In this document: positions 1-20,789 of the stretch, in pieces
Position numbering within the stretch: position 1 is the stretch's first letter
Layout: each line of letters opens with the position of its first letter
NCBI GenBank assembly: GCA_903958395.1
Contig: CAJBSZ010000346.1
Coordinates: 1 to 60,621, forward strand
Reading direction: 5' to 3'
DNA: 60,621 nt
From: an uncultured bacterium
GTDB lineage: Bacteria; Verrucomicrobiota; Kiritimatiellia; CAIKKV01; CAITUY01
Position numbers and translations under genes: made by a program
Notes under the pieces: model-generated
Told to the model about the DNA's origin: nothing
The model's database searches: none
The model's input: only the letters and a program-made list of their open reading frames with translations

Positions 1-3000
1 TCATGACATGAGGTATCACACAGGCCGAGAAGATCGTAAAATGATGTCGGCATATTCCGAACAAACATCATTTCGTGAGGAACCCTTACGGTCGGCATGT
101 GCGTATACAACATCGCCAACCTGGCGTTGCGTAATCCAAATGCCATTTCGTGGATCGGGTCTCGACTCGCCCACCTGCCGATCTCCGGGGAATAGTATCT
201 GTGGCCGTAATAATACAGCCCCGTCTCCTGATCTAAATATTTGCTAGAAAACCAAAAGTTAAAGTCATTTACCATCTGCCCGCTGGACGCGACTGTATTT
301 CCGTACGCATCATATTCCCGGTGCGCTACAACCGCGCCGCTAGCGTCAACATATTCCGAAATATTCCCGTTCGCATCGTAGCAGGGGAAATATGCAGTAC
401 CGTTCCGCATCACGGAAAGCAGGCCGCCAATACCGCCCGCACCCTGCTGTGTCCCGCTCAGGTCGAGCCCCCAGACGTAGGTATTCGTGACGCCGGCACT
501 GGAGGTTTCCTGGATTAAATTCCAGCCATCGTAAACGAAGTTATTCGTCACGCCGCTGACAATCTTCCGATAGCGGCGCGACATGTAATCGTATGAATAA
601 TTCGCGACCACAGCCTCGTTTGAAGCCCCTGTCATCCGATTCTCAGCATCCCAGGCGAAGGCGAAGCAGCCATCATTCGTGAGGTTTCCGTCGAGGTCGT
701 AAGCGGGGGCAATTTGAGATTGCTGATTTGAGATTACAAAATACTGGTTAAGGGAATTTGCCAGATATTCCGTGACGGCCCCATTATTCGTGGCCACCGT
801 CCGGTTCCCGATGGGATCATACCGGTATGAGAAATTGTTTATGCCCATGAGCGCCTCGACCAATTCACTGCGGGAATTATAGCCGAAGTTATTGGTCAGG
901 GAAGAAGAATCTACCCGTTGCGTCCGCCGTCCCACCGCATCGTTGGCATAGTCAAACTGTGAAATACGGTTCGTGCCGGAGGCGTTCAGGATTTGGGTGA
1001 GGAGGTTGCGGTTGGGCTCGAAGGAGCGGCGCACGCCATATCCTGTATTAGTTTCATTTAATGACTCATTTAAGTCGGAACCTGCTAGATATCCATAGCG
1101 GAAATTCTGAAACGGAAGAGACGCCGCCCGGAGGTCGGCGTCCACCTGGCGGAAGCGCCCCAACTCGTCATGACTGTAACGAATGGAGGACACCACGCTG
1201 GTGGAACCCGCCATCACGAGATCGTAGCCGACGGGTCGCCCTTGGGAATCATAGATGCGGACCAGTTCTGCGGCAGCATTGGTTTCAGACGCGAGTTGAA
1301 AAGCATCTGTGTAGGAAAACAGGCGGGTTCCTGTGCCGTCTGTAATAGTGGTTTGCCGGCCAAGGCGGTCGAATCCAAACGTAACGCCGGGGGTGTTGTC
1401 GCTGTAACTGATGTTCGTCAACTGACCGAGGCTGTCATAGCTATAGGCAGTCACAACACCTCGCGCCCAGGTGCGGGTGGCGAGTTTGCCGTCGGGGGTG
1501 TAGGTGTAGGAAGGGCCGTGGCCGTCCGCGTAGAGTTTGTTTGTTAACAACCCGGTTGCTTCATCATAGACCCAGCACGTACGGTCAAATGATGAAGTAT
1601 GAGTGATGAATGATGAATAGTTCGAGATGACCATGGAAGAGTCGCGAAGGGTGTACATGGCGGTCATGCGGCCGAAATCGTCGTAATCATAGGCGACGGG
1701 ATAGGTCGCGCCCCAGGTGGCGAGAACGTGCCCTTCATCATCGTAGGCGGTGAAGGTGCTATTGGTGAGGGGATCGGTCACCTGAATACGGCGCCCGAGG
1801 TCGTCAAAGACAAAACTTGTTCGATTGCTGGCGGCGTCCATGGTGGAGGTGACTTGGCCGAGAGAGTTGTAGGTGGTGTAGGAGCCGAGGGTTCGGGGTT
1901 CAGGGTTCAGGGAAACAATCTGGCGGCCGAGGGCGTCGTATGTGTAGGCGGTTTGGACTCCGGTTTTGGATGTTGAGGAGCTTAACTGGCCGTTGATGGT
2001 GACCTGCGTGGCGGCGTCTGTGGAATCGGGGTAGATCACCGTTTGGGTAAGGGTTTTGGCGGTGCGATCCACGTAGGTGCGGGAGGTAGTTTGGTTACCG
2101 AGGAGGTCGAAGGAACAGGATTCAGAAGTCAGGAGACAGGAGTCAGAAGAAACACCCAACCCTGTTAGACGAATCTTTTGAATGCTGTTGGTGATGGGGG
2201 TGGCGGAAGCGTTACCTGCATAGAGGATTGAGGCGCGGCATTGCCAGTAATCGCCTGATCCGTCCTGCTCGTACCATGTCGCGGATTCGTTGACGCGGTC
2301 GGGGCCAGCGAGGTCGAGAACGCCGTTGGTGTTCACGTCAAGGCCGGAACGGGTCTGCTCGCCCAGCTCGTTGTACTGGTAGAGCGTTGTCGAGTTGTTG
2401 GGTTGCTGGGTTGTTGAGATCAGTTGGCCCTTGGTGTTGTAGGAGTAGGTAGTGGCAACCACGGCACCGCCATAGCCGGGCTTCTCCGTCTTGACGGGAC
2501 GCCCCATCATATCGGTGGTGGTTTTCTGCCAGGCGGGAGAGTTGGTGCCAGCGGGGCCGCTAAACGATTTCGTCCAACGAAACCCGCTCGCGTCTATCCC
2601 ACTATCGTAGGCCGTCTTTACAATTTCATTTTCGGTGATGGACTTGGCTTGGCCGTCCAAATAGCGGGTGGTCGCGTTGGTCACGCCGCCCCGGATGGTG
2701 GTGCTGGCGACGCCCTCATAACGATAGGTGGTCACAATACACTGGCTGTCCAGTGACGAGATCAGGCGTCCGGCAAGGTCATATGTGTTGCTGCTAACTA
2801 ACTGGGTCAGCGGCCCGGCCGACAGGGTTTCCGTCAGGCGGCGCCCCTCGCTATCAAGGGTATAGCTCGTGATCCGATCAGCCTCGTTCGTGGTCGCTCC
2901 TTTTCTTATGATGGTGGTCAACTTGCCCAGCAAGTCATACCCGTAGAGGAACATGGTGCCGTCCCCTCCGATCTCCCATTCCTTGCCACAGCAGTTACCG

Positions 3001-4928
3001 CCCCATGACGCTTCGCTCTTCTCGCCCTTGGCATTCCTGACCAGCACGGGATGTTGCCACTCATCGAAACCCTTGGATGTCCACGCCACGCGCTCATAGT
3101 TTGGACCGCCGACGCAAACCCAGGTCTCGTCCAGCACTTCCTGGCTCATCGGGTCGAGGATGCGGGTTTCCTTTGTGGTCTTTCCTGCGATGCCTTCGGG
3201 ACTGATAGCCGTGCCATGCACAACGGTTTCGCGCCAGAAGGTTCCGGCTGGATTGGCCTCGAACGACGGGGGGATTTCGCCCACGCCAGGCTGATAGGTT
3301 CCATATTCGTAGGTGAATGTATCCATGCGGCCATCGGGGTAAGCCACGGTGGCCACGCGCCCGATTTGGCAATTAACCGTATTGGTTCCGTAATAGGTGG
3401 TGACGGTTCGCAGGTTATTGGTGTCGCCATAGGCGGCGGCCGGGGTCGTGGCCTTCTCGACAATCTCCTGCAGTTCGCCGTTGCCGCCCTGCCGGTAGCC
3501 GCGATAGGTGCGGGCGACCACCGTGCCCAGGATGGATTCCGTGACCATGCGGGGCAACTGGTCGTTCAGGCGCGGGCTGTCGGCGAGATCCACGGGCGCA
3601 TAACTGGTGAGCACCGCGTGAGCCGCAGTGACCGATGAAGTGAGCGACGAATCCTTGATGGCGGAAAGCTCATTGGTTACGCGCCCGGCGGCATCATAAC
3701 GGTGCCAGCGCCAACTTCCATCGGGATCAATGGCGGATTCCGTCAGACCGGCGGCGGTATAGGTGAAGAGGTTGGTCTGGTTTACTCCGCCGGTTTCGGT
3801 GATGCGGCGCGTAACGCCATCACCCCAGCCAAAGGACTTGATCTGCTCGACATAACGGCTTACGAGGGTGCCATCGGCCGCTTTGACGGAATGTGTGACC
3901 CATCGCTCAGTGCGGGCATCATTCCACATTGTTGCGTCCTCCTCCTGGCGCGCCACATCAAGGCCGTCGCCCGAAGTCATGATCCAGTCTTCGGCATCAG
4001 GGTTATAGGTAAAATCGTAGACCGTCGTCCGCCCCGCCATGGAACGTGTAACGATGAGTTTGCGCAATGTTCCAGGCAACGGGTTGGCGAAAGACCAAGT
4101 TTCGAAGGGAACCGCGCCCGCGTCGATGCGATAGTACCCATTGGTATCCTTGCCGCCGACCATGCTGGCAAGAGTGTAGAACTTCAGGGCATAGCGGCTC
4201 GAATCGGTGACCACGATATCCGCCAGCCGGGTTGGCAGAAGCACCTGCCGCAGGCTCTGGCTGGAATCCCGGATCACCTCGACGCCCATGTCTTGGTAGG
4301 TTTCCTCGCGACCGGCCACGGTTCGATGGCTGACCATCTGCATATATTGCGGTGATGTCTTATAGGCGTTGAAGCGGTAACGCTCCCCGTCCCCGGTGTA
4401 GAGATCATAGTAGGCGGGCTCCTTCAATACCGTCCACCCATTCGCATCCACCATAAAAAGCCGACACTTCTTGATCTGCGCATCACCAAACACGGGAACA
4501 CCAATGGATTCGTTGTCCTTGAAGTTGAAAAGGAAGGGGACACCCGCGCTCTGAATCAAGGTTACCTGGCGGGGGGCACCCGCGGCAGTCACCTCATGGG
4601 ACACCCCTTTCATGGCATAGCCAGCCACGAAGTTCAGGGTCTGGGGTGAATAAACCGCCTCGGACAACTGATTCTCGCCCATCCGGAAAAGCGCCAACTT
4701 GACGGAACTTCCCGGCCGCATCGGGCCTGCAACGATCTTCACCCAGGCGCACCCTGGTCCAGCGGCACTTGTGGTTGTCGGACAACTTGAACACGACGGG
4801 CCATACGTTCCCGCAGGGCAGGCCAAATTGGTGGCAGGGGCAACTCCCCAGATCACCGCTGGCACACAACACCACATCATGACGCCCACACACCACACCA
4901 GCGCCCTGATTGCTTTTATATTCTTCAT
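1..4928 (-). CDS. RHS/YD-repeat protein 1 with N-terminal signal peptide (3' end runs off the window; absent from ORF track)
   Basis: Manual translation from ATG at 4928: MKNIKAIRALVWCVGVMMWCCVPAVIWG...CAWVKIVAGPMRPGSS, collinear with the RHS at 12417..17642. The start frame matches the frame at the left edge, which reads the RHS core FSSKYLDQETGLYYYGHRYYSPEIGRWASRDP and the cleavage motif YDLLGL near nt 22-39. The start overlaps the upstream stop (ATGA). Confidence 0.9.
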   Translation of the reverse strand, partial: MKNIKAIRALVWCVGVMMWCCVPAVIWGVAPATNLACPAGTYGPSCSSCPTTTSAAGPGCAWVKIVAGPMRPGSSVKLALFRMGENQLSEAVYSPQTLNFVAGYAMKGVSHEVTAAGAPRQVTLIQSAGVPFLFNFKDNESIGVPVFGDAQIKKCRLFMVDANGWTVLKEPAYYDLYTGDGERYRFNAYKTSPQYMQMVSHRTVAGREETYQDMGVEVIRDSSQSLRQVLLPTRLADIVVTDSSRYALKFYTLASMVGGKDTNGYYRIDAGAVPFETWSFANPLPGTLRKLIVTRSMAGRTTVYDFTYNPDAEDWIMTSGDGLDVARQEEDATMWNDARTERWVTHSVKAADGTLVSRYVEQIKSFGWGDGVTRRITETGGVNQTNLFTYTAAGLTESAIDPDGSWRWHRYDAAGRVTNELSAIKDSSLTSSVTAAHAVLTSYAPVDLADSPRLNDQLPRMVTESILGTVVARTYRGYRQGGNGELQEIVEKATTPAAAYGDTNNLRTVTTYYGTNTVNCQIGRVATVAYPDGRMDTFTYEYGTYQPGVGEIPPSFEANPAGTFWRETVVHGTAISPEGIAGKTTKETRILDPMSQEVLDETWVCVGGPNYERVAWTSKGFDEWQHPVLVRNAKGEKSEASWGGNCCGKEWEIGGDGTMFLYGYDLLGKLTTIIRKGATTNEADRITSYTLDSEGRRLTETLSAGPLTQLVSSNTYDLAGRLISSLDSQCIVTTYRYEGVASTTIRGGVTNATTRYLDGQAKSITENEIVKTAYDSGIDASGFRWTKSFSGPAGTNSPAWQKTTTDMMGRPVKTEKPGYGGAVVATTYSYNTKGQLISTTQQPNNSTTLYQYNELGEQTRSGLDVNTNGVLDLAGPDRVNESATWYEQDGSGDYWQCRASILYAGNASATPITNSIQKIRLTGLGVSSDSCLLTSESCSFDLLGNQTTSRTYVDRTAKTLTQTVIYPDSTDAATQVTINGQLSSSTSKTGVQTAYTYDALGRQIVSLNPEPRTLGSYTTYNSLGQVTSTMDAASNRTSFVFDDLGRRIQVTDPLTNSTFTAYDDEGHVLATWGATYPVAYDYDDFGRMTAMYTLRDSSMVISNYSSFITHTSSFDRTCWVYDEATGLLTNKLYADGHGPSYTYTPDGKLATRTWARGVVTAYSYDSLGQLTNISYSDNTPGVTFGFDRLGRQTTITDGTGTRLFSYTDAFQLASETNAAAELVRIYDSQGRPVGYDLVMAGSTSVVSSIRYSHDELGRFRQVDADLRAASLPFQNFRYGYLAGSDLNESLNETNTGYGVRRSFEPNRNLLTQILNASGTNRISQFDYANDAVGRRTQRVDSSSLTNNFGYNSRSELVEALMGINNFSYRYDPIGNRTVATNNGAVTEYLANSLNQYFVISNQQSQIAPAYDLDGNLTNDGCFAFAWDAENRMTGASNEAVVANYSYDYMSRRYRKIVSGVTNNFVYDGWNLIQETSSAGVTNTYVWGLDLSGTQQGAGGIGGLLSVMRNGTAYFPCYDANGNISEYVDASGAVVAHREYDAYGNTVASSGQMVNDFNFWFSSKYLDQETGLYYYGHRYYSPEIGRWASRDPIHEMAFGLRNARLAMLYTHMPTVRVPHEMMFVRNMPTSFYDLLGLCDTSCH
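1120..1146 (-). repeat. REP-like palindrome inside RHS1 (GTGGACGCCGACCTCCGGGCGGCGTC)
   Basis: Hairpin GACGCCG..CGGCGTC; identical copy at 13843..13869 in RHS2; read in frame as VDADLRAAS. Confidence 0.65.
2116..2150. repeat. Heptamer tandem array (CAGRAGT-like x5) inside RHS1
   Basis: CAGGATT CAGAAGT CAGGAGA CAGGAGT CAGAAGA; absent at the equivalent site in RHS2. Confidence 0.75.
2386..2417. repeat. Octamer tandem array (GTTGYTGR x4) inside RHS1
   Basis: GTTGTCGA GTTGTTGG GTTGCTGG GTTGTTGA; the same family occurs at 13054, 13219, 15103 and intergenically at 52158. Confidence 0.75.
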
Positions 4929-5797
4929 TCTAAATTTCCTCTTGCATCCAATTTCAAAAACAACAACTTCGGTTGCATTATCTTTGCATTTATCTTTTTG
5001 ATGGCTGCCCGTGCGGCCGTCTTGAGCCGGATATCCGTACTAGTTACGGTGGTTCTCATAAGATCCTCATCCGATTTGTCTCCCAAGGCACCCAAACTGG
5101 CCATGGCCGAAATCCGAACCGGCACGGATCCGTTTACAGCCAGTTTACGGGCGTCTGGAAGGACACTTTGCTCACCCAGATCCGCGCAGATCTGCAACGC
5201 CGTGATTTTGGCAGGTTCGCCGTATGCCGGCGAACGCACCATCGACAGCGCCTTGGCCGCGACACGAGCCCGGTCAACCGATCCCTGCCCGCACAAATTG
5301 AAAAGCGCAATCAGTCCGGTTCCAGGAATACTGCCTTGTCGCTCGTCCACCGCTGACCAGAGAACACGCAGTACTTTTTCCCGGATACCCGCGTCCCCAA
5401 CCGTCGTGTAGATGTCTCCCAGATGCTGCACACAATAATCACGCCATGCCTCTTCATGGGAACGGTCGCCATACATCGCGATCAGATGACCCGCCAAGTC
5501 CGGGGGCATCACCTGTTGCATTTTGAGTGAATTCACGACGTCATTCTTGATCGCGCATAACTCGCCAGGTTGAGCAGGATCCTCGCCTGCCTTGCGATCC
5601 AGAAAGCCGTAGAGGGCCGTGATCTCTTCTTTGGAAACGGTTTTGCCAAGCGTCCTAGCCGCCTCGATGCGGGCCGGAAAGGCGGTTTCCGCCGCCCCCA
5701 GAATGATGGCCAAATTGGCGGGAGGTGCGGCGCAGGCCACGGGAATGCCCCAGATCGCGGAAAGAACCGTCATGATAATGAATATCCCTTTACTCAT
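4925..5797 (-). CDS. Exported HEAT/ARM-repeat protein
   Basis: Likely start ATG 5797 (MSKGIFIIMTVLSAIWGIPVACA, signal-like) overlaps the upstream stop. Helical repeats AKITALQICADLG, VRISAMASLGALG, RLKTAARAAIKKI. Confidence 0.75.
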   Translation of the reverse strand: MSKGIFIIMTVLSAIWGIPVACAAPPANLAIILGAAETAFPARIEAARTLGKTVSKEEITALYGFLDRKAGEDPAQPGELCAIKNDVVNSLKMQQVMPPDLAGHLIAMYGDRSHEEAWRDYCVQHLGDIYTTVGDAGIREKVLRVLWSAVDERQGSIPGTGLIALFNLCGQGSVDRARVAAKALSMVRSPAYGEPAKITALQICADLGEQSVLPDARKLAVNGSVPVRISAMASLGALGDKSDEDLMRTTVTSTDIRLKTAARAAIKKINAKIMQPKLLFLKLDARGNLE

Positions 5798-8700
5798 CAG
5801 TTCCCTCCTATGTACAAACCGCCCTGATAGAGCTTCGTCGTGTGGCAGGTTGATGACCGGGATGAAGCCGACTGCAGCATGCGGTAGGTGCAAACGCCCA
5901 GTTCGTTGAAATCGGCAGCCGTAAGGGTCTTATTGAGAGTGCCGTCAAGGAACGTGACGCCCCCTGCAAAGATGTGAAGAACCACAGTGAGATCGGACGG
6001 GACATAGCCCAGTTGCAAGCGAACCTCGACCATGCGGCTTCCATCGGCAAAGGTTTCGACCACCTTGAAATAAGTGCCATGGTCGCCCCTGATTGAACTG
6101 ATCTTTGCACTATCCAGAACGGGGCCATCCGCACCCAGCCGCGCCACCATATAAAAAGGGCCGTCCGTCGGGTTCATGAGGGTGAAGCGAGTGCCGCCGC
6201 CGACAAGGTTGGTGGACGAAACGCTGAGTTGGCTGTCGGCCTGCACCACGGCGTCTGTCTTGATGCCCGGACAATCCCAAGTGCGGGCCTGGCCGGTGAC
6301 GCACTCCGCCTCCTCGCCGTTGAATGAACCCGAGATAACCTGAACCGCAAGAGACCCGTTGGTGAACGTGGTTTCATTGCTGCAGGCGCCGAGGACGGTA
6401 AAGTTTCCCGCCTGGCTGAAGCAATAGGGAACAGGGCTCCCCACCATGGCGACTAGGTTCGTAACCACATTCGTTCCGGTTGAGACCATGAACGTGGCCA
6501 GGCCATTAGTGGCTTCCACAGGCCAGGCCGAGAGCCTGAGCGAACTGCCGCCCCGGATTGCCAGCCCGTTGCTGAAGGAGGCATCAAGCAGGTTGACTGC
6601 CTCCCAAATCACATTGTTGGACACCATGACGCCGCTACTCTGATCCGCCGTCACTATTTCGGTCGTGTTTGTGGGGGAGATGAAGACATTGGCAAACCAC
6701 GTGGTCCTCAAGCCGTGCTGTACCGCCACAATCTGCTGGGTTTGTCCGCCGGGCGCATAGGATGCGGCGATTGACAGCCGTTCCTGATAAACAGCGGATC
6801 CTTCCATGCAAATCGGTGACACCAGAGTGGATTCGGGCACAGGCCCGGTTTCCGACAAGGAAGCCATGCGGTGATCAAGCCAGTCGGGGATGCCATTGGT
6901 ATTGGCATCCAAGCCGCCAAAGGACTGCAACTTGAGGGAATTGACCTTCAGGAACGTGTTGGGTGTGTCATTGTTCCACCGAAGCCTGATGACATGATCT
7001 CCCGCCGCGAGTTCAGGAAGAAAGAAGGTGGCAGTACAGTTGGTTCCATACGGAGCCTTGACGGTCTGGCGGCCCGAGATCGTGCCATCAATGAACAGGC
7101 TCAAGTCAAACGTATTCAGGGCTGTGAGAACGTTCTGTTGAGTCACATTGACGGCGACGGCGAAGGTTCCGTTGCTTGGGATGGCCAGCAAGTAGTCCAG
7201 GGAACCGCTCCGTTCACGGGCAGAGATGGCGACGCCTTCGATAGCCCATGTCCCGATCCACGACGTGGCGTCACGGCCGTTCAGCACGAGAAGATCCGTC
7301 ACGGTTCCGTTGAAATCCACGACAAGCGGGTCGGCATACGCCATGATTTCAACCTTGTCGTTGACTCCATCCCCATCCGTGTCTGCCACCTTGGGTTTTG
7401 TGCCTGCAAGGTATTCCCCACTATTCAGGAGTTGATCCCCATCCGGATCGGCGGCCGCATCGTTGACAAGGGGATTTGTCCCATTATCCACCTCCCATTT
7501 ATCCGGCAGCCCATCGGAATCGGTGTCAGATTTAAGCGGACTGGTCTTATAGGTGTTGACCTCCGCGCCGTCTGACAGGCCGTCGCCATCGGTGTCCGGA
7601 TTGTGGGGATCGGAACTGGCCTGATATTCCTTAAGGTTGGAAAGGCCGTCGCTGTCAGGGTCGGCGGAGGCATCGTTGACGAGCGGATTGAGAGCGTGGT
7701 CAACCTCCCACTTGTCAGGCATGCCATCGGAATCTGTGTCAGCGGATTTTGGATTGGTGCCCAGTTGGTACTCCTGCATGTTGGTGAGGCCATCGTTATC
7801 GGGGTCAGCCCCGGAATCGGGAGTGAGGGGGGCGGTCCCCTTGGTGATCTCCCACTGATCGGGGAGCCCATCGTTGTCACTATCGCTGCTATGTGGATCG
7901 GTCCGGTTTAGAAATTCATGGCGGTTATCCACTCCATCGCCGTCCGCATCGTCGGTTGCCGCCGCCTCAAGATTCCCGAAATGAATCATCTCCCAGCCAT
8001 CACAAAGGCCGTCATTGTCAGTGTCGGTGTCATCATCAATAATCGCAATCGAGGCCGAGGCATTCGTGGGGTTGATGAAATAATTGCCTTGGGCAATGGT
8101 GACCGTTATCGTTTCCGCACCTTCGAGCCAGAGATCATCGAGGGTCGGAACCGTGAACGAAACCTGGGGGGCCCCGGAGGGGATGACGACGGTCCGAGGA
8201 ATGGCCGAGAAGTCGGCCCCTTCGGTGGCGGCGCCACCTGGAACCGCAAGGTTGACCGACAGGGCAAGGTTGGTGTCCTGCGCCAGGCGGCTGAGAGTGA
8301 ACGTGCCTGCCTGTGCTGGTTCGGCGCCATTCGCCGTACCCGCAATGGAGACCTGCTGCTCACCATAGACCAGAATCTGGTCGGTCATAGCCTTGTACTG
8401 GAAGCGGATCCATTCAGGAGACTGTGCCAGGGATTCGACACGGAGTTCGTCCAGCATGCCCACATAGCCGGAGGAACCACTTGCGGCGGCGCCAAACCAG
8501 AAAGCGGTAACGGGACTATAGGCGCGGGTTTTCCCCGTCCCGCTGTGCCAGAGTTCACCATTGACGTAGATGCGCATTATGCCGGAGGCCCGATCCTTGG
8601 TGAAGGTCCAGTGGTTCCACCCGCCCTTGAAGAGATTGGTGGTGGCCAGTTTGTTGATGCGGTCGTAATTGCCGAAGGCATCCCAATAGACGTTTGAGTC

Positions 8701-11340
8701 GCTCCACGGGACATGAGCGTTAAGTTCCCGGCCCATGACGCTGGTTCCCTCAAAACAGGTGACGCCAAGAGGTTGATTCGTGGCGCCGTATTGCCAGAAG
8801 CTGATGGAGACCGCATTGCTGATCGTGGCCAAGGCGGAGGGAGGGACGATAACGCTATCGGACCCGCGGAAGTTGCGGGCGTTGCCAAGAATACCGGTGA
8901 CACACACGGCACCGACGTTGGTGGCGGGATGAGCGGCCGGGGCGGAATCGGACAGAACGGTGTTGGTTTCGGAAAGATGCCATACGCCCAGGAAGTTCGT
9001 TGACCAAGTGGCGGAAGCATTTGAGGAATTGGTGGCCTCAGGGTTGTTGTAATGCAGCCAGAAATAACCGGTCGAGTTGGTTCCACCCGCGTCGGGGAGA
9101 CGGACCCAGAAGAGGGACTCGCCACCGGGGTTCCAGCGCTCAAGTTCAAAGGCCAGCGGCGCTCCGGTGGCGTCGGTGAAGAGGATGTCGCGGCCGGCGG
9201 CAGCACATTGGGAATAGTCCACCCGTTCCGGGGTGAGGCGGATCAAAACGGGAACATCGGCCAGGGAATTCGTGAGCACGCCGTCACGGAAGGAGAGTTT
9301 GAGGCGATTGCGCCAATGTGAGGCGGGGTGGGATTCGGCATCGGCGGGATCGGTTCCTCGCTGGACCTCGTCGGCATCCTTGAAACCATCGAGGTCGGAA
9401 TCGGAAGCCAAGGGATTGGAGTGCCAGGTATTGACCTCGGTACCGTCGAGAAGGCCATCGTTGTCGCTATCGGACTTCGCCAGGTCGGTGCCGTGCAGAT
9501 ACTCGGACGTATTAGATAGGCCGTCGAGATCGGAATCCAGCGCCCCATCCGCCGCGCTGGCGGGATTGAGCGCATGGGCGATTTCCCATCCGTCAGGCAT
9601 GGAATCATTGTCCGAATCCGGATTGGCGGGACTTGTTCCAAGGCGATATTCTTCACCATTGTTCACCCCATCATGATCAGAATCGCCGGACTCCGTCTCG
9701 TTGGTGTTCCCCATGTACTGCATCTCCCAGTCATCCGGCAAAGTGTCGCCATCCAGCGACAATCCGGCAGGCACGTTGGTGCTGACGCTGAATTGGTCCA
9801 AGCCACCCGACCCACCCTCCATGGCAAACTCGTGGAGTTCGCTTGCGGGGATGCCGAAACCCAGATCCTCAGCCACCTTCATGCCATTGAGACATATGAG
9901 CCAGCGTTGGGCGGCGAAGTCCATGCCGATAGAGAGCCGAACCCAAGACTCCAGTTTAACAGGAGGAACGTTCGTAAGAGACATCCATTTCTGGCCCGCC
10001 GGCTTGCGCCCATCCTGCACGACGAGATGGCCTTGGGGATCGAACATAAAGGCGACGGTTTGATTGGTCATGTCCTGGGGGATGTCAGCGGCCTTTGCCG
10101 CGGCATGGAAATCCACCCACGAAATCTGGCCAGGCAGTTGGGCGAAAAGACGGTGTACCTCCGATGTCACGATCCCGGAGTGGAACCGGATAGCCTGTTC
10201 GCCCTCCCAGACAACATTGGTCTGGACAAGGACCGTGTTACTCGGCGATGCGATCCACCCGTTCTGCCCGTTCACGTCGCCCACATGCACCGTGTTCGTC
10301 TCGAACCGGTCAAGAAACGGCAAACGAGTGAAATCGTTGGAGGCATAAGGGTCCAGACCCATCGCTCGTTCAGCGGCATCGCTCATCCCATCCCCGTCCA
10401 AATCCGGGTCGGTCAGGGTGATATTCACGCCACTCGTGTTGCCGGTAAGAACCAGCGAGGTGGCACCATTGGGAGCCTGATATCCGCCGCGTGGTTCCCA
10501 GTCATCTGGGATGCCATTGCCGTTCACATCCCGGAAGGCACGGGGATACCAGGTCTGCCTCAGTGGCAAACCCGACAACGTGTACACCCCTGGAATACCG
10601 AGGGTCAGGTAATGCGCCGACGCCCAATCCGCAGCATTGGTCGTAGCCAATACATGGATCACCCCCATCTGGACACCGACATAGAACACCTGGCCGGTGA
10701 TGGCGGCACAGGGCACAGACAAGGCTGAATCAAGGTCGCTCCCCCAGGCCAGTTCCTCCGAATCAGAATACCCATCGCCATCACGGTCCGAAGAAAGCAG
10801 GGTGTCGAATATCGTCATCGCGCCAGCGTCGCGCCTGAGCCGAATACCCGTCGCATTGGTATAGAGGCCAAACGGGATGGTGAAAGTCCGGCTCGTCACC
10901 CCACCCCCGCCCGAGAGCAGGTTATTGAAGAGATTTGATGTGAAAACAGGTTCGTTCGGGTCATTCGTCCCAGGAAACCCGTAGAGATCCAGCATCAGGG
11001 TGGCGTTGCTGTGATCCACATAATCCAACTGCATCAGCACATTGTTTGTCAGGTGGATTCGATCCACCTCAATGTTCAAAGCGGCTTCGTTGGTGTCCCC
11101 GGCCTCCACCACCCAGGCGGGGATATTGGTGTTCCATGCGCCGCCGATCTTGAACGCCGACACCATCCAGTCCGGCCATGGCGAAAACAGAACATCCTCA
11201 TTGCTGACACAGGTTGAATCGCCCCACGGAATCCAGGCATCGGTGACGGCATTGGTGGAGGGGTTATCAGCCCGGGAAGGCAGAACACAACCCAAGAGAA
11301 CAAAGGCGAGAACAGAGCAATATAAATAAGATATTTTCAT
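5797..11340 (-). CDS. Large secreted multidomain protein (thrombospondin type-3-like DxDxDG repeats, DUF2341, LamG-like, Calx-beta)
   Basis: 1847 aa with a signal peptide; many DxDxDGxxDxWE..GTxP repeats; DUF2341-like VPVLIRL..DILFTD..FELERW..FWVRLP; LamG-like WNHWTFT..RIYVNG..LDELRV; Calx-beta-like ATEGADF..VVIPSG..DDLWLEGAETITVTI. Confidence 0.85.
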   Translation of the reverse strand: MKISYLYCSVLAFVLLGCVLPSRADNPSTNAVTDAWIPWGDSTCVSNEDVLFSPWPDWMVSAFKIGGAWNTNIPAWVVEAGDTNEAALNIEVDRIHLTNNVLMQLDYVDHSNATLMLDLYGFPGTNDPNEPVFTSNLFNNLLSGGGGVTSRTFTIPFGLYTNATGIRLRRDAGAMTIFDTLLSSDRDGDGYSDSEELAWGSDLDSALSVPCAAITGQVFYVGVQMGVIHVLATTNAADWASAHYLTLGIPGVYTLSGLPLRQTWYPRAFRDVNGNGIPDDWEPRGGYQAPNGATSLVLTGNTSGVNITLTDPDLDGDGMSDAAERAMGLDPYASNDFTRLPFLDRFETNTVHVGDVNGQNGWIASPSNTVLVQTNVVWEGEQAIRFHSGIVTSEVHRLFAQLPGQISWVDFHAAAKAADIPQDMTNQTVAFMFDPQGHLVVQDGRKPAGQKWMSLTNVPPVKLESWVRLSIGMDFAAQRWLICLNGMKVAEDLGFGIPASELHEFAMEGGSGGLDQFSVSTNVPAGLSLDGDTLPDDWEMQYMGNTNETESGDSDHDGVNNGEEYRLGTSPANPDSDNDSMPDGWEIAHALNPASAADGALDSDLDGLSNTSEYLHGTDLAKSDSDNDGLLDGTEVNTWHSNPLASDSDLDGFKDADEVQRGTDPADAESHPASHWRNRLKLSFRDGVLTNSLADVPVLIRLTPERVDYSQCAAAGRDILFTDATGAPLAFELERWNPGGESLFWVRLPDAGGTNSTGYFWLHYNNPEATNSSNASATWSTNFLGVWHLSETNTVLSDSAPAAHPATNVGAVCVTGILGNARNFRGSDSVIVPPSALATISNAVSISFWQYGATNQPLGVTCFEGTSVMGRELNAHVPWSDSNVYWDAFGNYDRINKLATTNLFKGGWNHWTFTKDRASGIMRIYVNGELWHSGTGKTRAYSPVTAFWFGAAASGSSGYVGMLDELRVESLAQSPEWIRFQYKAMTDQILVYGEQQVSIAGTANGAEPAQAGTFTLSRLAQDTNLALSVNLAVPGGAATEGADFSAIPRTVVIPSGAPQVSFTVPTLDDLWLEGAETITVTIAQGNYFINPTNASASIAIIDDDTDTDNDGLCDGWEMIHFGNLEAAATDDADGDGVDNRHEFLNRTDPHSSDSDNDGLPDQWEITKGTAPLTPDSGADPDNDGLTNMQEYQLGTNPKSADTDSDGMPDKWEVDHALNPLVNDASADPDSDGLSNLKEYQASSDPHNPDTDGDGLSDGAEVNTYKTSPLKSDTDSDGLPDKWEVDNGTNPLVNDAAADPDGDQLLNSGEYLAGTKPKVADTDGDGVNDKVEIMAYADPLVVDFNGTVTDLLVLNGRDATSWIGTWAIEGVAISARERSGSLDYLLAIPSNGTFAVAVNVTQQNVLTALNTFDLSLFIDGTISGRQTVKAPYGTNCTATFFLPELAAGDHVIRLRWNNDTPNTFLKVNSLKLQSFGGLDANTNGIPDWLDHRMASLSETGPVPESTLVSPICMEGSAVYQERLSIAASYAPGGQTQQIVAVQHGLRTTWFANVFISPTNTTEIVTADQSSGVMVSNNVIWEAVNLLDASFSNGLAIRGGSSLRLSAWPVEATNGLATFMVSTGTNVVTNLVAMVGSPVPYCFSQAGNFTVLGACSNETTFTNGSLAVQVISGSFNGEEAECVTGQARTWDCPGIKTDAVVQADSQLSVSSTNLVGGGTRFTLMNPTDGPFYMVARLGADGPVLDSAKISSIRGDHGTYFKVVETFADGSRMVEVRLQLGYVPSDLTVVLHIFAGGVTFLDGTLNKTLTAADFNELGVCTYRMLQSASSRSSTCHTTKLYQGGLYIGGN

Positions 11341-11720: not shown

Positions 11721-12359
11721 TCATGGCTGGCTGTTAGTGGATCCCATGAGTGTAAACATATACTGCAAACGTGAAGCTGTACAATAGCTCCATGTCACTT
11801 GCCCGCCCTGACGATCTGCATCCAAAGGAAACACGGCACTTAAATTGATTACATGAGCACCATCTCCTTTCACCGGAAACAATAAAGGAAAGGAAATATT
11901 CTCCCCTGGCCGCAGATAATGGCAAATTCTTTCTGGGTTGAACTGAAAGTTCAAACTAAACTCATCTTTTATGATGCCTCCAGCATTGAATGAAGCGGAA
12001 GACAGCTTTAACAAATATGGCTCATAAATAACGATAGGACGTTGCGATATATTATAAATAACAATCTCGGCGACGGGCGTACTAGGCTGCCGATAGAATG
12101 CTGCACCATTAGCCTTCATGGATACATCCCCGATATTAATTTTCAGCTTCTCCGCCAGTTTTTTGAGATTTCCCCGATAGAAGAGATCGCATGCGTCCTT
12201 ATGGAATTCCGCCTCAGTTGCAGAGGCACCCTCACTAGACATCGAAGTCACTTGCTCGGCAAACAGAAGAGCCTTGCGTACTGATAAACCAGTAATCACT
12301 AAATAGCAGGTTAAAAAACCCAACAGAAACGTCATTAACCGCCAAAATATTTTCCTCAT
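11721..12359 (-). CDS. Hypothetical membrane-anchored protein, candidate immunity protein for RHS2
   Basis: Directly downstream of RHS2; AT-richer than its flanks; N-terminal TM helix followed by a beta-rich domain. Confidence 0.6.
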   Translation of the reverse strand: MRKIFWRLMTFLLGFLTCYLVITGLSVRKALLFAEQVTSMSSEGASATEAEFHKDACDLFYRGNLKKLAEKLKINIGDVSMKANGAAFYRQPSTPVAEIVIYNISQRPIVIYEPYLLKLSSASFNAGGIIKDEFSLNFQFNPERICHYLRPGENISFPLLFPVKGDGAHVINLSAVFPLDADRQGGQVTWSYCTASRLQYMFTLMGSTNSQP

Positions 12360-12416: not shown

Positions 12417-15400
12417 TCAATACCACACATATGTAGTTGTCTCCATCTTATCAAATTCGACAGCGATTAAGGGCGCAGGAAACCAGTGATAATTAGAGGC
12501 ATTGATCGTAAAATCTGTACGAAGCAATATCGCCCAAATTGAAACACACTCAGTGATCTGAATATGACTAGTTACTGTGGAAAATGACCTGGGCGAGGGT
12601 GGAGGAAGGCCAGGCGGAGTTCGAGTCGGAATTATGGGGTACCACCAGATCTCCCAATGAGTTGAAAGTATGTCTTCTGACACGACAAGTTGTTCACATC
12701 CAGAGCAATGCTTTGGTCCAAGTACAATCGTAGCAACCAAACCAAGATGATCACATACGTCAATTGGATTATTGATGCAAAAAGCAATAATATTGATATC
12801 AAATTTCTCCCCAATCGGATCCCTTGACGCCCATCTCCCGATTTCCGGTACATAGTAGCGGTAGCCGTAATAATAGAGGCCAGTCTCAGCATCCAAATAT
12901 TTCGTTGAAAATCGGAACGGATTCACATCGGCCAGCGCACCGGTCTTACTAATCGTGTTCCCGTACGGATCAAACTGATATTGCGCCAGGAATTGGCCAT
13001 TCGTTCCAAACAAATCAGTAACATTGCCGTTTGCATCGTAGCAGTAGAAAGCAGTTGTTGAGTTGCTAGGTTGCTGCGTTGTTAAGGAAAGCAGGCCGCC
13101 GATGGTGCCAGCCCCCTGGGCGGTTCCGGAAAGATCAAGCCCGTAAACGTAACTGTTTGTAGAGGATGCGGTGCTTTCGGCGATCATCGCCCAGCCCTGG
13201 TAGAGGAAGCGGGTTTCAGTTGCTGGGCTGTTGAGTTGTTGAGTTGTTTTGGAGACCCGCCGGGACATGTAGTCATAACTGTTGGAGATCACAGTGTTCG
13301 CGTTGGATGCGAGCACCAGGCGGTTCTCGGCGTCCCACACGAAAGTCCAGTCCTTGTAGCCGCCCCCTCCTTCGCCAAGGCTACGGAGGGCTACGATGTT
13401 ACCGTCGGCGTCGTAGGCGGGGAGGATTTGAGATTGCTGATTTGAGATTGCAGAATACTGGTTTAGGGAGTTGGCAGCATAACTCATGGCTTCCGCATTG
13501 TTGGTGGCTGTCCGGCGGTTGCCGATGGGGTCGTAACGATAGTTGAATGAGTTTGTGCCCATGGCTACGTCTTCCAATTCACTGCGCATATTGTAGGCGA
13601 AAAGGTTCGAGATAACGGTGGAAATGTCGACATCGGCACGCTTGACGCGGCGACCGATCTCATCATTCGCATAATCAAACCTGTGAAGCGAAACACCACC
13701 GAAACCATTAGTTATCGAGGCGATCAGGTTGCGGTTGGGCTCGTAACTGCGAACAACGTTGAAGCCTGTGTTTGTCTCCTGCACTGACTGGATTAAGTCG
13801 GAACCCGCCAGATATCCGTAGTGGAAGTTCTGCGGCGAAAGAGACGCCGCCCGGAGGTCGGCGTCCACCTGAAGGAAACGCCCCACAAGGTCATAGCCGT
13901 AGCGGACTGAGTAAGACGGCTCATCCGGAGGATTCGCCCTACCTGAAGAAAAGCCAGCGGGACGACCGAGAGTGTCGGAGGCGTAGGTTAGGATGCTTTG
14001 CGTGTTAGTTTCGGACACGAGTTGCAGGGCATCATTGTAGGTGAAGGTTCGGGTGCCGGTTCCATCGGTGATGGTGGTTTGACGGCCAAGGCGGTCGTAG
14101 GCGAAGGTTATGCACGGGGTTCCATCGCTGTAACTGATGTTGGTGAGTTGGCCAAGCGAATCGTAATTATAGGTGGTGACGACGCCACGGGCCCAGATTC
14201 GAGTGAGGAGCTTGCCGTCAGCCGTATATGTGTAAGCTGGTCCCTTGTTGTCGGAATAGAGCTTGTTGGTGAGGAGCCCTGTGGCCTGATCGTACAGCCA
14301 GGTCGTACGGTCAAAGGATGAAATATGAGTTAGGAATGATGAATAGTTCGAGATGACGAGCGAGGAGTCGCGAAGGGTGTACATGGCGGTCATGCGACCG
14401 TAGGCGTCGTAATCATAGGCCACGGGGTAAGTGGCACCCCAGGTGGCGAGAGTGCGTCCTTCAGCGTCATAGGTGGTAAAGGTTGAATTCGAGAGCGCAT
14501 CAGTGACCTGGACACGGCGGCCGAGGTCGTCAAAGATAAAACTTGTTCGATTGCTGGCGGCATCCATGGTCCAGTCGATCTGGCCATTGTCATTGTAATG
14601 GCTCACGGTCGCGACGGAGCGCGACCCTCCAGAGGATACACAAGTTTGGCGGCCTAGGGGGTCGCATGCGTAGGCGGTTTGGACGCCGGTCTTGGATGTC
14701 GAGGAGGTCAATTGGCCGTTGATAGTGACCTGGGTGGCAGCGTTGGTGGAATCGGGGTAGATCACGGTTTGCGTGACGGCCTTGTTAGCGCGGTTCACGT
14801 AGTTGCGCGAGATGGTGGAGTTGCCCAGTGTGTCCACCGCCACCATTTCAGATGCGCAATTTGAGATTTGAGAAAACCCTGTGAGGCGGGTCTTCTGCAC
14901 GCTGTTCGTTGTGGGGGTGGCGGAATTGTTTCCGGCGTAAAGAATCAAGGCGCGGCACTGCCAGTAATTACCGGCACCGTCCTGCTCGAACCAGGAGGCG
15001 GATTCGGTGACGCGGTCGGGACCGGCAAGATCGAGAACACCGTTGGTGTTAACGTCGAGACCGCTCCGGATCTGCTCGCCCAGTTCGTTGTACTCGTTGA
15101 GGGTTGTTGAGTTGTTGGGTTGCTGGGTTGTGGAGGTTAGCTGGCCCTTAGTGTTGTAGGAGTAGATTGTCGCAAGCAGGTAGTCGCCCCCTTCGACTCC
15201 GCTCAGGGCAGGAAAACCGGGCTTTTCTTCCTTCACGGTGCGGCCAAGCAAGTCTGTTGTGGTCTTGGACCACATCGGGGAGTTGGTTCCGGAGGGACCC
15301 GTGAAGGCTTTGCTCCACTGTGTGCCGTTCGTGCTGACTCCATAATCATAGGCGGTCTTGATCACACCATTTTTGAGAGTGGCCTTCCATTGGCCCGAAA

Positions 15401-17788: not shown

Positions 17789-18352
17789 TCACGGCACGAC
17801 TAGACCTGACCCTACTCCCCCAAGTTCGGCCGCACTAATTGTGTACCGGCAGGCCTTGACGCAAGCATTTGACACCAACCTCGGATCCTGCACCAAGAAA
17901 ATATCTGCGCCCGCAAAAATTACAAGGGCATCATCCACTTCTATGCTGCGGATTTGAGCGACACAGTTACTCGTAACGGCATGTCGAGCAAACTGCAGAG
18001 CCAAGCCCCGGCATGACTTGTCGGGAACATAATCTACGCTTGCCATAATCTGCAAAAAGACACGCCGATCATACCTAACGATATAGTCAACGTTACGAAT
18101 ATAGTAGTTCGTCTCACCAATTCGCCACTCGACGTTGCGGTCAACCGGAATGCGCACAGAGCTGGGCACTTTGTTGCAAGACACAATCAAACTAAAGATG
18201 GAGACAAGCCAGAGAACATTTCCAGCACTAGTGACAATCGTTGTCCAGACCCATTGTGAATGTGATCTAGGTTCCCAAAACAGATTCTTAAACCATCGTT
18301 GTGTTGTCATTTTGCCCCAAAGACATATTGGATTGATGTCTTCATTCTGCAT
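17789..18352 (-). CDS. Hypothetical membrane protein, candidate orphan immunity protein
   Basis: 187-aa ORF with one TM segment, lower GC than its flanks, located in the RHS locus just after a truncation breakpoint. Confidence 0.5.
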   Translation of the reverse strand: MQNEDINPICLWGKMTTQRWFKNLFWEPRSHSQWVWTTIVTSAGNVLWLVSIFSLIVSCNKVPSSVRIPVDRNVEWRIGETNYYIRNVDYIVRYDRRVFLQIMASVDYVPDKSCRGLALQFARHAVTSNCVAQIRSIEVDDALVIFAGADIFLVQDPRLVSNACVKACRYTISAAELGGVGSGLVVP

Positions 18353-18837
18353 CTCCGGTTATGGCGCGTGAAGGTCCGGCTCGTCACCCCGCCCCCGCCT
18401 GAAATCAGGTTGTTGAAAAGGTTTGAGGTGAAAACGGGCTCGTCCGGGGTGTTTGTCCCCGGGAACTCATAGAGATCCAGCAGCAGGGTGGCATTGCTAT
18501 GATCCACATAATCGAGCCGCATCAGGGCATTATTGGTGAGGAAGGACAGGTCCACGTCAATGTTGAGTGAGGATTCATTCGTGTCCCCCTCCTCCACCAC
18601 CCAGGCGGGAAGATTGGTATCCCAGGCGCCGCCGATCTTGAATGCCGACACCATCCAGGACGGCCACGGCGAAAACAGAACATCGTCATTGCTGACACAG
18701 GATGATTCGCCCCACGGAATCCAGGCATCGGTGACGGCATCACTGGAAAAACCTTCCGCCCTGGAGAGAGGAATGTAACTCAAGAGGAACAAGGGGAGTG
18801 TTGAGCAAATTAATCTCCAATTTTTCATGATCATCAC
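18307..18837 (-). pseudogene. Truncated paralog of the N-terminus of the 1847-aa protein
   Basis: AVTDAWIPWG..GGGGVTSRTFT is highly similar to residues ~31-153 of 5797..11340; DNA similarity ends abruptly near 18367. Confidence 0.8.
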
Positions 18838-19062
18838 TCAACAATGGTAAAAACTCGAGCCTTCATCCGCCGCCCTACAGACTACGGAAATAAGAGTCCT
18901 TTGATAGCGGAGAAACCGGGAGCATGCAAGCTTCATTGCTTAAGATAAGCTTTTTTTAACTGGCTTGACATCCGCGCCGGATTTCCCCACCTTTTGAGCT
19001 TTATTGAAGCAATCGGTCAGGTCTGATTTGTCCGGAAACCCAAGCATCACGAGGAAAAGCTA

Positions 19063-20430: not shown

Positions 20431-20468
20431 CCGACGTAGAGCCCTTATGACCACAAGGTCCCCGTGGC

Positions 20469-20789
20469 CTATTCCACAATCGTCGGGACCATGATCAGGT
20501 CGGCGCTGTGTTGGGGAGCATTCTTCAGCATGACGTCACGGTCGAGGCCGGGACGCACGATATCCTCACGAAAGACGTTGTGAATCGGAGCGGCATGGGC
20601 CATGGGCTCAACCCCCTCGACGTCCAAATCCCGGAGCTGGTTGAAATGGGCCACAATGTGATCCAACTGCCCCTGGAATTCGGCCGCTTCCGAATCTGTA
20701 ATGGCCAGGCGCGCCAGGTTGGCGACATACCGGACATCCATCTGCTTGGCTGTATTGGTTTTATCCTGACTCACAACAGTCTCCCCCAC
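20469..20789 (-). CDS. gatC: Asp/Glu-tRNA amidotransferase subunit C
   Basis: VRYVANLARL..LDVEGVEPM..NVFRED..KNAP; the true start may be later. Confidence 0.9.
   Translation of the reverse strand: MGETVVSQDKTNTAKQMDVRYVANLARLAITDSEAAEFQGQLDHIVAHFNQLRDLDVEGVEPMAHAAPIHNVFREDIVRPGLDRDVMLKNAPQHSADLIMVPTIVE

Follow-up and report, generated by a model that had tools for sequence, protein, structure and literature searches.

Rearrangement hotspot (RHS) toxins of two-membrane bacteria are chiefly understood as type VI secretion system (T6SS) cargo or as parts of toxin complexes (Tc), and a Sec-dependent RHS toxin of the WapA type is known from Bacillus subtilis. RHS toxins that carry only a signal peptide are filed as 'T2SS/Sec-dependent' (T2SS, type II secretion system), without signature neighbour genes, in the portion of the survey by Zhang et al. 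2012 (PMC3482391) cited here, which also discusses MafB toxins anchored by the MafA surface protein and catalogues HEAT-repeat immunity proteins for Tox-REase-7 in verrucomicrobia and planctomycetes. In the cited portion of Raoelijaona et al. 2026 (PMC13018210), Sec-targeted teneurin-like proteins (TLPs) are described from six phyla, none of them belonging to the Planctomycetes-Verrucomicrobia-Chlamydiae (PVC) group, with adhesion domains in the same chain. Here we describe a 60,621-nucleotide stretch of DNA from an uncultured lake-water Kiritimatiellia bacterium of the Verrucomicrobiota (contig CAJBSZ010000346.1 of assembly GCA_903958395.1; hereafter the window), in which a giant exported protein, a small HEAT-repeat protein and an RHS protein with a hydrophobic leader are encoded by three coupled genes. 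With moderate confidence, we read this locus as an RHS polymorphic-toxin module that has three components, depends on Sec and not on the T6SS, and is specific to the PVC group; in this module, the RHS protein would be attached to, and delivered with, the other two components.

The window is a complete contig (C346, 60.6 kb) of a 5.2 Mb genome that is 93.5% complete and divided among 559 contigs. The giant, HEAT and first RHS (RHS1) genes all lie on the minus strand, at the following positions (aa, amino acids; ORF, open reading frame):

5797..11340, minus strand: giant exported protein, 1847 aa (ORF, translation and Pfam)
5800..7332, minus strand: constant C-terminal module of the giant protein, its aa 1337-1847 (alignments and structure model)
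4925..5797, minus strand: HEAT-repeat protein of 290 aa; the true ATG lies at 5797 and the stop codon at 4927..4925
3..4928, minus strand: RHS1, with leader, 4-Cys linker (aa ~30-60) and cocoon from aa ~60; the C-terminus runs off the contig end

Stop and start codons overlap at both junctions, exactly where the initial annotation of this DNA had placed them. Read on the minus strand, the giant/HEAT junction is ...GGAGGGAAC TGATG AGT..., in which TGATG gives an overlap of 1 nt, and the HEAT/RHS1 junction is ...GAATTTAGA ATGA AGAAT..., in which ATGA gives an overlap of 4 nt; a purine-rich stretch resembling a Shine-Dalgarno sequence lies upstream of each overlap.

All three proteins start with a charged stretch followed by a hydrophobic leader, which in the giant protein is MKISYLYCSVLAFVLLGCVLPSRA before D and in the HEAT protein MSKGIFIIMTVLSAIWGIPVACA before AP, with VACA as its last residues. 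In a crude hydrophobicity test applied to homologues and to other ORFs of the same loci, a hydrophobic leader was present in 21/22 RHS, 29/36 HEAT and 30/40 giant homologues, and in 50/136 of the other ORFs. The claim that all three proteins begin with signal peptides thus stands for the hydrophobic leaders themselves, which look Sec-like by their sequence and by this crude test. Read by eye, HEAT homologues of Verrucomicrobiae seem to start with an uncleaved signal anchor, after which comes a Pro/Ala-rich linker, and one relative from Kiritimatiellia seems to have a lipobox (LLIGC). For the giant leader in the window (LLGC), a lipobox reading was rejected, as the remnant of a paralog has no Cys at that position. 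We note that many RHS and giant homologues of Verrucomicrobiae (for example, in L062, L066, L063, L068 and L054) carry an Asn-Pro motif (A-T/S-N-P-x-P-P or similar) right after the leader, and that aa 25-28 of the giant protein in the window, D-N-P-S, occupy the same place. This post-leader motif is a possible lineage-specific processing or sorting signal.

The gene set recurs within the same genome and across the phylum. On contig C122, a giant C-terminus, a HEAT protein and an RHS protein share 63-66% identity with the set in the window, and on contig C299 a giant protein of 2588 aa, bearing PATR and TSP3 repeats, is accompanied by a HEAT protein (33% identical) and a DUF6531-type RHS protein (26% identical). 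Relatives of the same order have the same gene arrangement. Searching one genome per species with the constant module of ~510 aa as query gave 49 confirmed loci from 102 pattern matches. These loci are labelled Kiritimatiellia, Lentisphaerae/Victivallales, Limisphaerales, Puniceicoccaceae and Akkermansiaceae, with one metagenome-assembled genome labelled Dongiaceae, and include the cultured carriers Haloferula chungangensis and Luteolibacter pohnpeiensis. A HEAT gene neighbours the giant gene in 37/49 loci, lying directly downstream in 29, farther downstream in 2 and upstream on the same strand in 6. An RHS gene lies downstream in 26/49 loci (23 recognized by phmmer or by YD-motif count, 2 from Pfam domains and the last through an N-terminal match of 47 aa), or in 21/31 when only loci with at least 4 kb of room are counted. 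Third genes in L037 and L042 that did not at first look like RHS genes proved to encode RHS proteins with long Ig/VWA/LamG extensions. In L042, a DDE transposase gene (19100-20494) interrupts the RHS gene, whose repeats resume after it, which fits rearrangement-prone loci.

When the remaining ORFs of the loci were compared all against all, no secretion machinery was detected, and a single additional family proved recurrent: a third gene, not of the RHS type, found in 5 loci. This gene follows the giant or HEAT gene in L045, L059, L061, L067 and L073, and its product has a leader and no Pfam match; a Cys-rich stretch follows the leader in L045, L059 and L061, and is missing from L067 and L073.

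Co-occurrence was counted in 401 genomes, a single sample drawn evenly from the phylum, in which related genomes are not independent. The module was present in 48 genomes and the HEAT family in 52, with both in 40 and neither in 341; the HEAT family was thus found in 40/48 genomes with the module versus 12/353 genomes without it. Five extra regions were taken from genomes matching in these searches. Three hold giant, HEAT and RHS genes, a fourth holds giant and RHS genes plus a HEAT frame missed by the ORF caller, and the fifth has a HEAT gene and a HEAT::RHS ORF without a giant gene. This last ORF (L075 9948-13472, minus strand; 1174 aa) joins the first ~180 aa of HEAT in frame to a mid-RHS core; it was rejected as fusion evidence, as a partial HEAT joined to mid-RHS looks like a deletion product.

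Divergence within the set follows a cassette-like pattern. The giant proteins of the window and of C299 are 75% identical over aa 1-670 (83% in DNA over ~1.6 kb), whereas their constant modules are 30-33%, their HEAT proteins 33% and their RHS proteins 26% identical. Because the giant N-terminus is 75% identical and the other three only 26-33%, the module, HEAT and RHS change as a block. Another contig of this genome, C99 (L023 2879-18501), encodes a protein of 1970 aa that has DUF6531 and 20 RHS repeats, and after it one of 3237 aa, in which four copies of the middle module of the giant protein and a LamG domain are joined to an RHS core, so that one chain combines adhesin-type modules with a cocoon; neither a HEAT gene nor the constant module is found there.

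The giant protein combines a variable N-terminal region with a constant C-terminal module. Its Pfam domains are TSP3_bac (8 stretches), DUF2341, Laminin_G_3 and Calx-beta, and across family members the N-terminal part differs, with TSP3, LamG, Calx-beta, PATR and RCC1 repeats or domains in various members. This make-up supports an adhesin or carrier type, in agreement with the role proposed initially. NCBIfam matches to CglD, the Amuc_1099 family and MtsD were rejected as a family assignment, as they sit in the TSP3-repeat region (aa 1105-1331). The last ~510 aa align as a single unit across homologues and define the family; the distinct C-terminal part noticed from the sequence is therefore real, at this length and not the ~480 aa first given. 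The module contains the invariant motif G-V-T-F-x-D-x-T, and its invariant positions include G458, V459, T460, F461, D463, T465 and C496. This invariant Cys lies near the end of the module and is followed by His in at least 90% of homologues; C175 is 81% conserved.

A structure model of the constant module (pLDDT 90, pTM 0.82) is compact and all-beta. Its aa 10-140 match jelly rolls of carbohydrate-binding module (CBM) families 6, 35 and 36 (Z ~14, root-mean-square deviation (rmsd) 2.0-2.7 Å over 113-120 residues), and the whole is predicted to comprise a CBM6/35/36-like jelly roll and about four immunoglobulin (Ig)-like sandwiches. Foldseek returned only generic Ig arrays for the whole module (TM <0.35), sequence searches gave no match in the Protein Data Bank (PDB; best E 0.03, at chance level) or in Pfam, and the ESM Atlas search gave no usable match. 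With a cut-off of E ≤ 1e-3, a profile of the module matched 2410 of 1.84 billion cluster representatives, and with E ≤ 1e-30 it matched 1146. Among the best 150 matches listed, proteins range from ~460 to 4285 aa, and the module reaches or nearly reaches the C-terminus in almost all. One match, P0080 (3879 aa), has the module in mid-protein (aa 1302-1800), followed by a gingipain-type C25 peptidase with propeptide and FG-GAP repeats; it was rejected as a Rosetta-stone fusion, as what follows the module is this peptidase and FG-GAP and not RHS.

The small protein scores 27.2 bits against HEAT_2, just below the Pfam cut-off of 27.7, and by profile matches solenoids of the PBS-HEAT/alphaRep type. 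Longer fused forms of it were sought and none was found, in a search that constitutes weak evidence. Complex prediction was carried out for one pair, the constant module with the mature HEAT protein, together with three controls. The interface score ipSAE was 0.85, 0.85 and 0.86 for the pair and 0.00 for all three controls; the pass mark of this score is reached by 58/80 solved complexes and 2/110 mismatched pairs, counts that apply only approximately here because the alignments were our own. At least 86% of contacts are common to the runs, and the pLDDT of the partner is at least 86. On the giant protein, the predicted interface lies in the last Ig-like domain (module residues 428-467, 486-495 and 511) and takes in G458, V459, T460, D463 and T465 of the invariant motif; on the HEAT protein it includes D97, Y98, Q101, G136, T137 and Q179. 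Predicted interface positions are more conserved than others in both partners, with means of 0.56 versus 0.43 elsewhere in the module (a value reached by 12/10000 random sets) and 0.55 versus 0.38 elsewhere in the HEAT protein (0/10000 random sets), and 10 of the 25 most conserved HEAT positions fall in it. What is predicted is a HEAT protein whose concave face clamps the last Ig-like domain of its giant partner. The initial annotation had cast the HEAT protein as a periplasmic adaptor for the RHS cocoon; the adaptor role holds up in the prediction, and the partner shifts from the RHS cocoon to the giant protein, HEAT-giant being the one pair modelled. HEAT relatives (~30-47% identity) also adjoin DUF1573 (HYDIN/VesB-like Ig) proteins in L016, L017 and L018, where giant and RHS genes are missing, and those of L016 also lie close to a DUF900 hydrolase of 1100 aa. 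Ig-like domains in several types of partner may be what this HEAT family clamps.

The anatomy of the RHS proteins is that of known cocoons. In Pfam, RHS1 and its paralog in the window, RHS2, match RHS_repeat only (E 2.5e-36 and 9.8e-33, respectively), with no match to PAAR, VgrG, SpvB or WXG domains, as the initial annotation had read from the sequence, or to two-partner secretion (TPS) domains; TIGR01643 also matches, and the Rhs-associated core TIGR03696 scores 55 and 80 bits against an NCBIfam cut-off of 32.5. Both carry the double aspartyl autoprotease motifs, DPIHE...DLLGL in RHS1 and DPIGE...DHLGL in RHS2. A model of RHS1 aa 1-700 (pLDDT 82, pTM 0.76) is disordered to about residue 59 and forms a beta-hairpin shell onward. 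For aa 38-564, the best structural match is 9ifo_A (Z 14.2, rmsd 3.9 Å over 346 residues), starting from the FN-plug position, and other matches are T6SS Rhs cores (Z 11-12.6 at rmsd ~8 Å), teneurins (Z 8-12) and TcB/TcC (Z 6-9). Judged from these first 700 folded residues, the RHS protein is predicted to be a self-cleaving beta-cocoon with an N-terminal plug.

The stretch CAWVKI..AGPMRPGSS is common to RHS1 and RHS2, as first noted, and had been taken for a separate N-terminal domain. Because the shell starts at about residue 60 and the alignment to solved cocoons begins at the plug position, we assign it to the first strand of the plug and cocoon and not to a trafficking domain, so that it is simply where the cocoon begins. 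Between the leader and this strand lies a disordered linker of ~35 aa with 4 Cys. The Cys-rich tip reported earlier is real: C37 is conserved in 91% of 22 RHS homologues, and exactly four Cys precede the first strand in 12/22. The N-terminal architecture is alignable from Kiritimatiellia to Akkermansiaceae, and the RHS proteins of these loci form one family with the same tip and plug.

At the other end, the sequence after the cleavage motif is unrelated in 12/15 RHS proteins compared, these 12 being the ones in which the motif was located. The RHS proteins are polymorphic toxins, because unrelated C-termini follow a conserved motif. RHS1 is cut by the contig end 6 residues past DLLGL, so its own toxin is not in the window, and the toxin end of RHS2 is 106 aa long without a family match. 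Neither the C-terminal toxins nor the ORFs after them gave a convincing Pfam family. Small ORFs follow RHS genes in other loci, and a 212-aa membrane ORF without Pfam or NCBIfam match follows RHS2.

No T6SS, Tc or two-partner genes were detected by family scans of the ORFs in the rest of the window, which agrees with the initial annotation; past 19 kb it holds housekeeping genes such as H+-PPase, glycogen genes, riboflavin genes, MutS, FtsY and others. VipB/TssC and PAAR (PAAR_motif) were not found in the 93.5%-complete genome, with the limit that incomplete genomes cannot prove absence. VipB was likewise not found in 4/5 other carrier genomes, and in the fifth it lies ~1 Mb away from the trio. 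A T6SS effector reading was rejected, as the RHS proteins carry no PAAR, prePAAR or VgrG and no sheath or PAAR gene was found. For TPS and contact-dependent inhibition (CDI), Pfam detected neither a TPS secretion domain nor a CdiB/FhaC-type transporter in the trio or in other ORFs of the window, and a two-partner secretion reading was rejected for want of any TPS-type match there. Pfam matches to SpvB, FG-GAP or TcA families were also missing from the three proteins. With its 9 secretin genes the genome does have type II-like routes, but nothing ties them to the locus. The Verrucomicrobiota host, as a PVC bacterium, is taken to be a two-membrane organism. The recurrence of a coupled module independent of T6SS, Tc and TPS, put forward initially as a candidate, is now borne out by the neighbourhoods in the 49 loci and the co-occurrence in the 401 genomes. 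The families occur together, hydrophobic leaders were seen, and no known secretion adaptor is matched by the N-terminus of the RHS protein.

We propose the following scheme for how these components could act together. The three products would cross the inner membrane via their leaders. The RHS protein would be an ordinary self-cleaving cocoon, with plug and shell from about residue 60, a DPxxE...DxxGL autoprotease and an enclosed variable toxin; it would have a short 4-Cys tip but lack a dedicated delivery domain. Display and targeting would fall to the giant protein, which consists of a variable, Ca-stiffened and lectin-rich N-terminal region and the constant 510-aa module. The HEAT protein would be held at the membrane by its signal anchor, lipid or leader, with its concave face clamping the last Ig-like domain, and this clamp could anchor or chaperone the giant protein at the envelope. 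The RHS cocoon would then be a payload that attaches to this platform, passes the outer membrane with it and is delivered into neighbouring cells on contact. In a broader version, which we consider unlikely, the constant module and the HEAT clamp would be the core of a PVC-specific envelope route for the display or export of large folded cargo, to the surface and to neighbours, without T6SS, Tc, type V (T5SS) or type VII (T7SS) secretion system parts; RHS cocoons would make up most of the cargo, with a further family taking this role in some loci, and the RHS 4-Cys tip and the invariant Cys of the giant protein could be the coupling point.

Several observations weigh against the three-component reading. 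A HEAT gene was not seen in 12/49 loci, 4 of which have <1 kb of downstream sequence, and 12 of the 401 sampled genomes have the HEAT family without the module. Among the loci with room, 10/31 lack a downstream RHS gene (L036, L043, L044, L045, L055, L056, L065, L067, L069 and L073). HEAT relatives at ~30% identity stand beside DUF1573 proteins without giant or RHS. A ~180-kDa folded cocoon or an 1847-aa protein would have to cross the outer membrane, for which the 9 secretin genes offer no more than a hint. The folds predicted for the module, CBM and Ig, point to no specific function, and the complex score is the model's own confidence, derived from the same alignments that define the conserved residues. 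Lastly, the RHS2 frame is intact although a HEAT gene is missing and the giant gene upstream of it is truncated.

The order of transcription on the minus strand is giant remnant, orf187, RHS2, 212-aa ORF, giant, HEAT and RHS1, and the features around RHS2 are as follows:

12417..17642, minus strand: RHS2, a complete paralog of RHS1 (63% identical), with leader, 4-Cys tip, cocoon and 106-aa toxin
11721..12359, minus strand: ORF of 212 aa that follows RHS2 directly and has a membrane helix at its N-terminus; by position only, a candidate immunity protein
18307..18837, minus strand: truncated copy of the giant N-terminus, leader plus ~155 aa, 75% identical to giant aa 1-154 (tblastn)
17789..18352, minus strand: orf187, a 187-aa ORF between the giant remnant and RHS2, without a family match

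Judged by its sequence, the truncated copy upstream of RHS2 is a leftover of a former giant gene. The standing of orf187 as a real gene is doubtful, and it may not be a gene at all. Logan contigs of two runs span the giant/HEAT/RHS1 junctions and the junction from the RHS2 end over the 212-aa ORF to the giant start, and extend from RHS2 over orf187 into the giant remnant; because contigs of two runs bridge the junctions, the gene layout is not an assembly chimera, with the proviso that both runs belong to one study and one may be the source sample. One Logan contig continues past window position 1, where RHS1 ends. Elsewhere in the window, MutS is split into two overlapping minus-strand ORFs (40613-43113; domains I-II at 43113..42196 and III-V at 42211..40613), which could reflect a frameshift, a sequencing error or a real break. 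At 19060-20454 two long ORFs on opposite strands overlap; because only the plus-strand partner (19063-20430) has a family match, to a major facilitator superfamily (MFS) transporter, the minus-strand ORF is probably spurious.

Of the alternatives to the three-component reading, the one that survives best, and which we judge somewhat unlikely, holds that the giant and HEAT proteins are an independent adhesin with its anchor or chaperone, and that RHS genes sit beside them through landing-site preference or co-regulation, their products leaving by secretin, vesicles or lysis without touching the pair. The 9 secretin genes would allow for such an exit, Sec-type polymorphic toxins without signature neighbour genes appear in Table 1 of Zhang et al. 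2012 (PMC3482391), and HEAT-giant is the sole contact tested by complex prediction. The 10/31 loci without a downstream RHS gene also speak for it, as do the 5 loci in which another family takes the third place and RHS2, which has lost HEAT and most of the giant gene with its frame still intact. Such independence is harder to reconcile with the stop/start overlaps that join all three genes, with an order of giant-HEAT-RHS or HEAT-giant-RHS kept over at least three classes, with locus RHS proteins that are one family sharing the same N-terminal tip and plug, and with the co-divergence of C-terminal module, HEAT and RHS, in which the giant N-terminus does not take part. Because 10/31 loci have no RHS gene and RHS2 has no partners, this alternative stays alive.

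A Tc-like ABC toxin, in which the giant protein would be the A component responsible for target binding and the translocation channel, and RHS a fused BC cocoon, is very improbable. The layout is similar, with the giant protein encoded upstream of the RHS cocoon, and TcB/TcC are among the RHS structural matches. TcA has a C-terminal TcB-binding domain, which the conserved C-terminal module of the giant protein recalls. This reading was nevertheless rejected, as it fails at the level of both Pfam and fold: neither the giant nor the RHS protein has TcA, SpvB or beta-propeller Pfam domains, the constant module is all-beta (CBM plus Ig) without a helical channel, T6SS-type Rhs cores and a Bacillus teneurin-like protein match better than TcB/TcC, and the predicted partner of the module is the HEAT protein. 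All three proteins here have leaders, which Tc subunits are not known to carry.

A role for the HEAT protein in immunity to the RHS toxin is hardly credible and was rejected: HEAT repeats are listed among immunity proteins in the cited portion of Zhang et al. 2012 (PMC3482391) and HEAT follows the RHS gene in some arrays (L032/L014 and L076), but it lies upstream of RHS in most loci, carries a signal anchor or export leader, goes with the RHS core and giant module in its identity (93, 71 and 58% in L025, L026 and L033, where the toxins are unrelated) and is predicted to bind the giant protein, and small separate ORFs follow each RHS gene.

The three-component reading would give the signal-peptide-only RHS class, at least in PVC bacteria, a defined partner pair. 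The module family is large, unnamed and present in abundant freshwater, soil and gut-associated lineages, and because cultured carriers exist, RHS display and delivery in a Verrucomicrobia-type cell are open to bench work. A full-text literature search found no publication on the giant-HEAT-RHS trio.

Among described systems, the RHS protein resembles a TLP (Bacillus inaquosorum BiTLP, PDB 9IFO), described in the cited portion of PMC13018210 as a Sec-targeted RHS/YD cocoon with a self-cleaving C-terminal toxin, thought to be surface-displayed under the control of its adhesion domains. RHS1 shares the shell and the plug-position match to 9ifo_A, has no NHL domain in Pfam and shows no propeller in the model of its first 700 aa; N-terminal to its plug there are no TIP or adhesion domains, only the 4-Cys linker of ~35 aa. 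The same portion of PMC13018210 places adhesion and TIP domains and an NHL propeller in one chain, whereas here the adhesin-like part is a separate 1847-aa protein with a HEAT partner. WapA-type Sec-dependent RHS toxins of Gram-positive bacteria (Bacillus subtilis; for Streptococcus suis, PMC12704120) likewise combine a signal peptide, RHS repeats and a polymorphic toxin without a T6SS or T7SS leader. They differ in being single, wall-held proteins of one-membrane cells, where this locus has two conserved accessory genes. MafA/MafB of Neisseria, in the account cited from PMC3482391, also pairs a Sec-type toxin with a proposed surface-anchored holder and sets a constant N-terminal region against a variable C-terminus, but the protein families are unrelated, the Maf toxin has no RHS cocoon and no HEAT partner is present, so the likeness is one of analogy only.

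Rhs effectors of the T6SS that come with VgrG/PAAR and Eag-type chaperones (for example, 8QJA, 8QJB and 7Q97) have the same cocoon, plug and autoprotease, match in sequence, and are likewise served by a small dedicated helper encoded upstream. In the locus described here, a signal peptide takes the place of PAAR, prePAAR or VgrG, and the role of helper falls to an exported HEAT protein whose predicted partner is the giant protein. Tc (ABC) complexes share a large partner protein encoded beside a toxin-enclosing RHS cocoon, and differ in that the locus has no TcA-type channel, SpvB or propeller, has leaders and gives a weaker structural match. The RHS polymorphic toxin is therefore of a known kind, and what is new is a PVC-wide, unnamed and widespread accessory pair made up of the giant protein's constant module and the HEAT protein.

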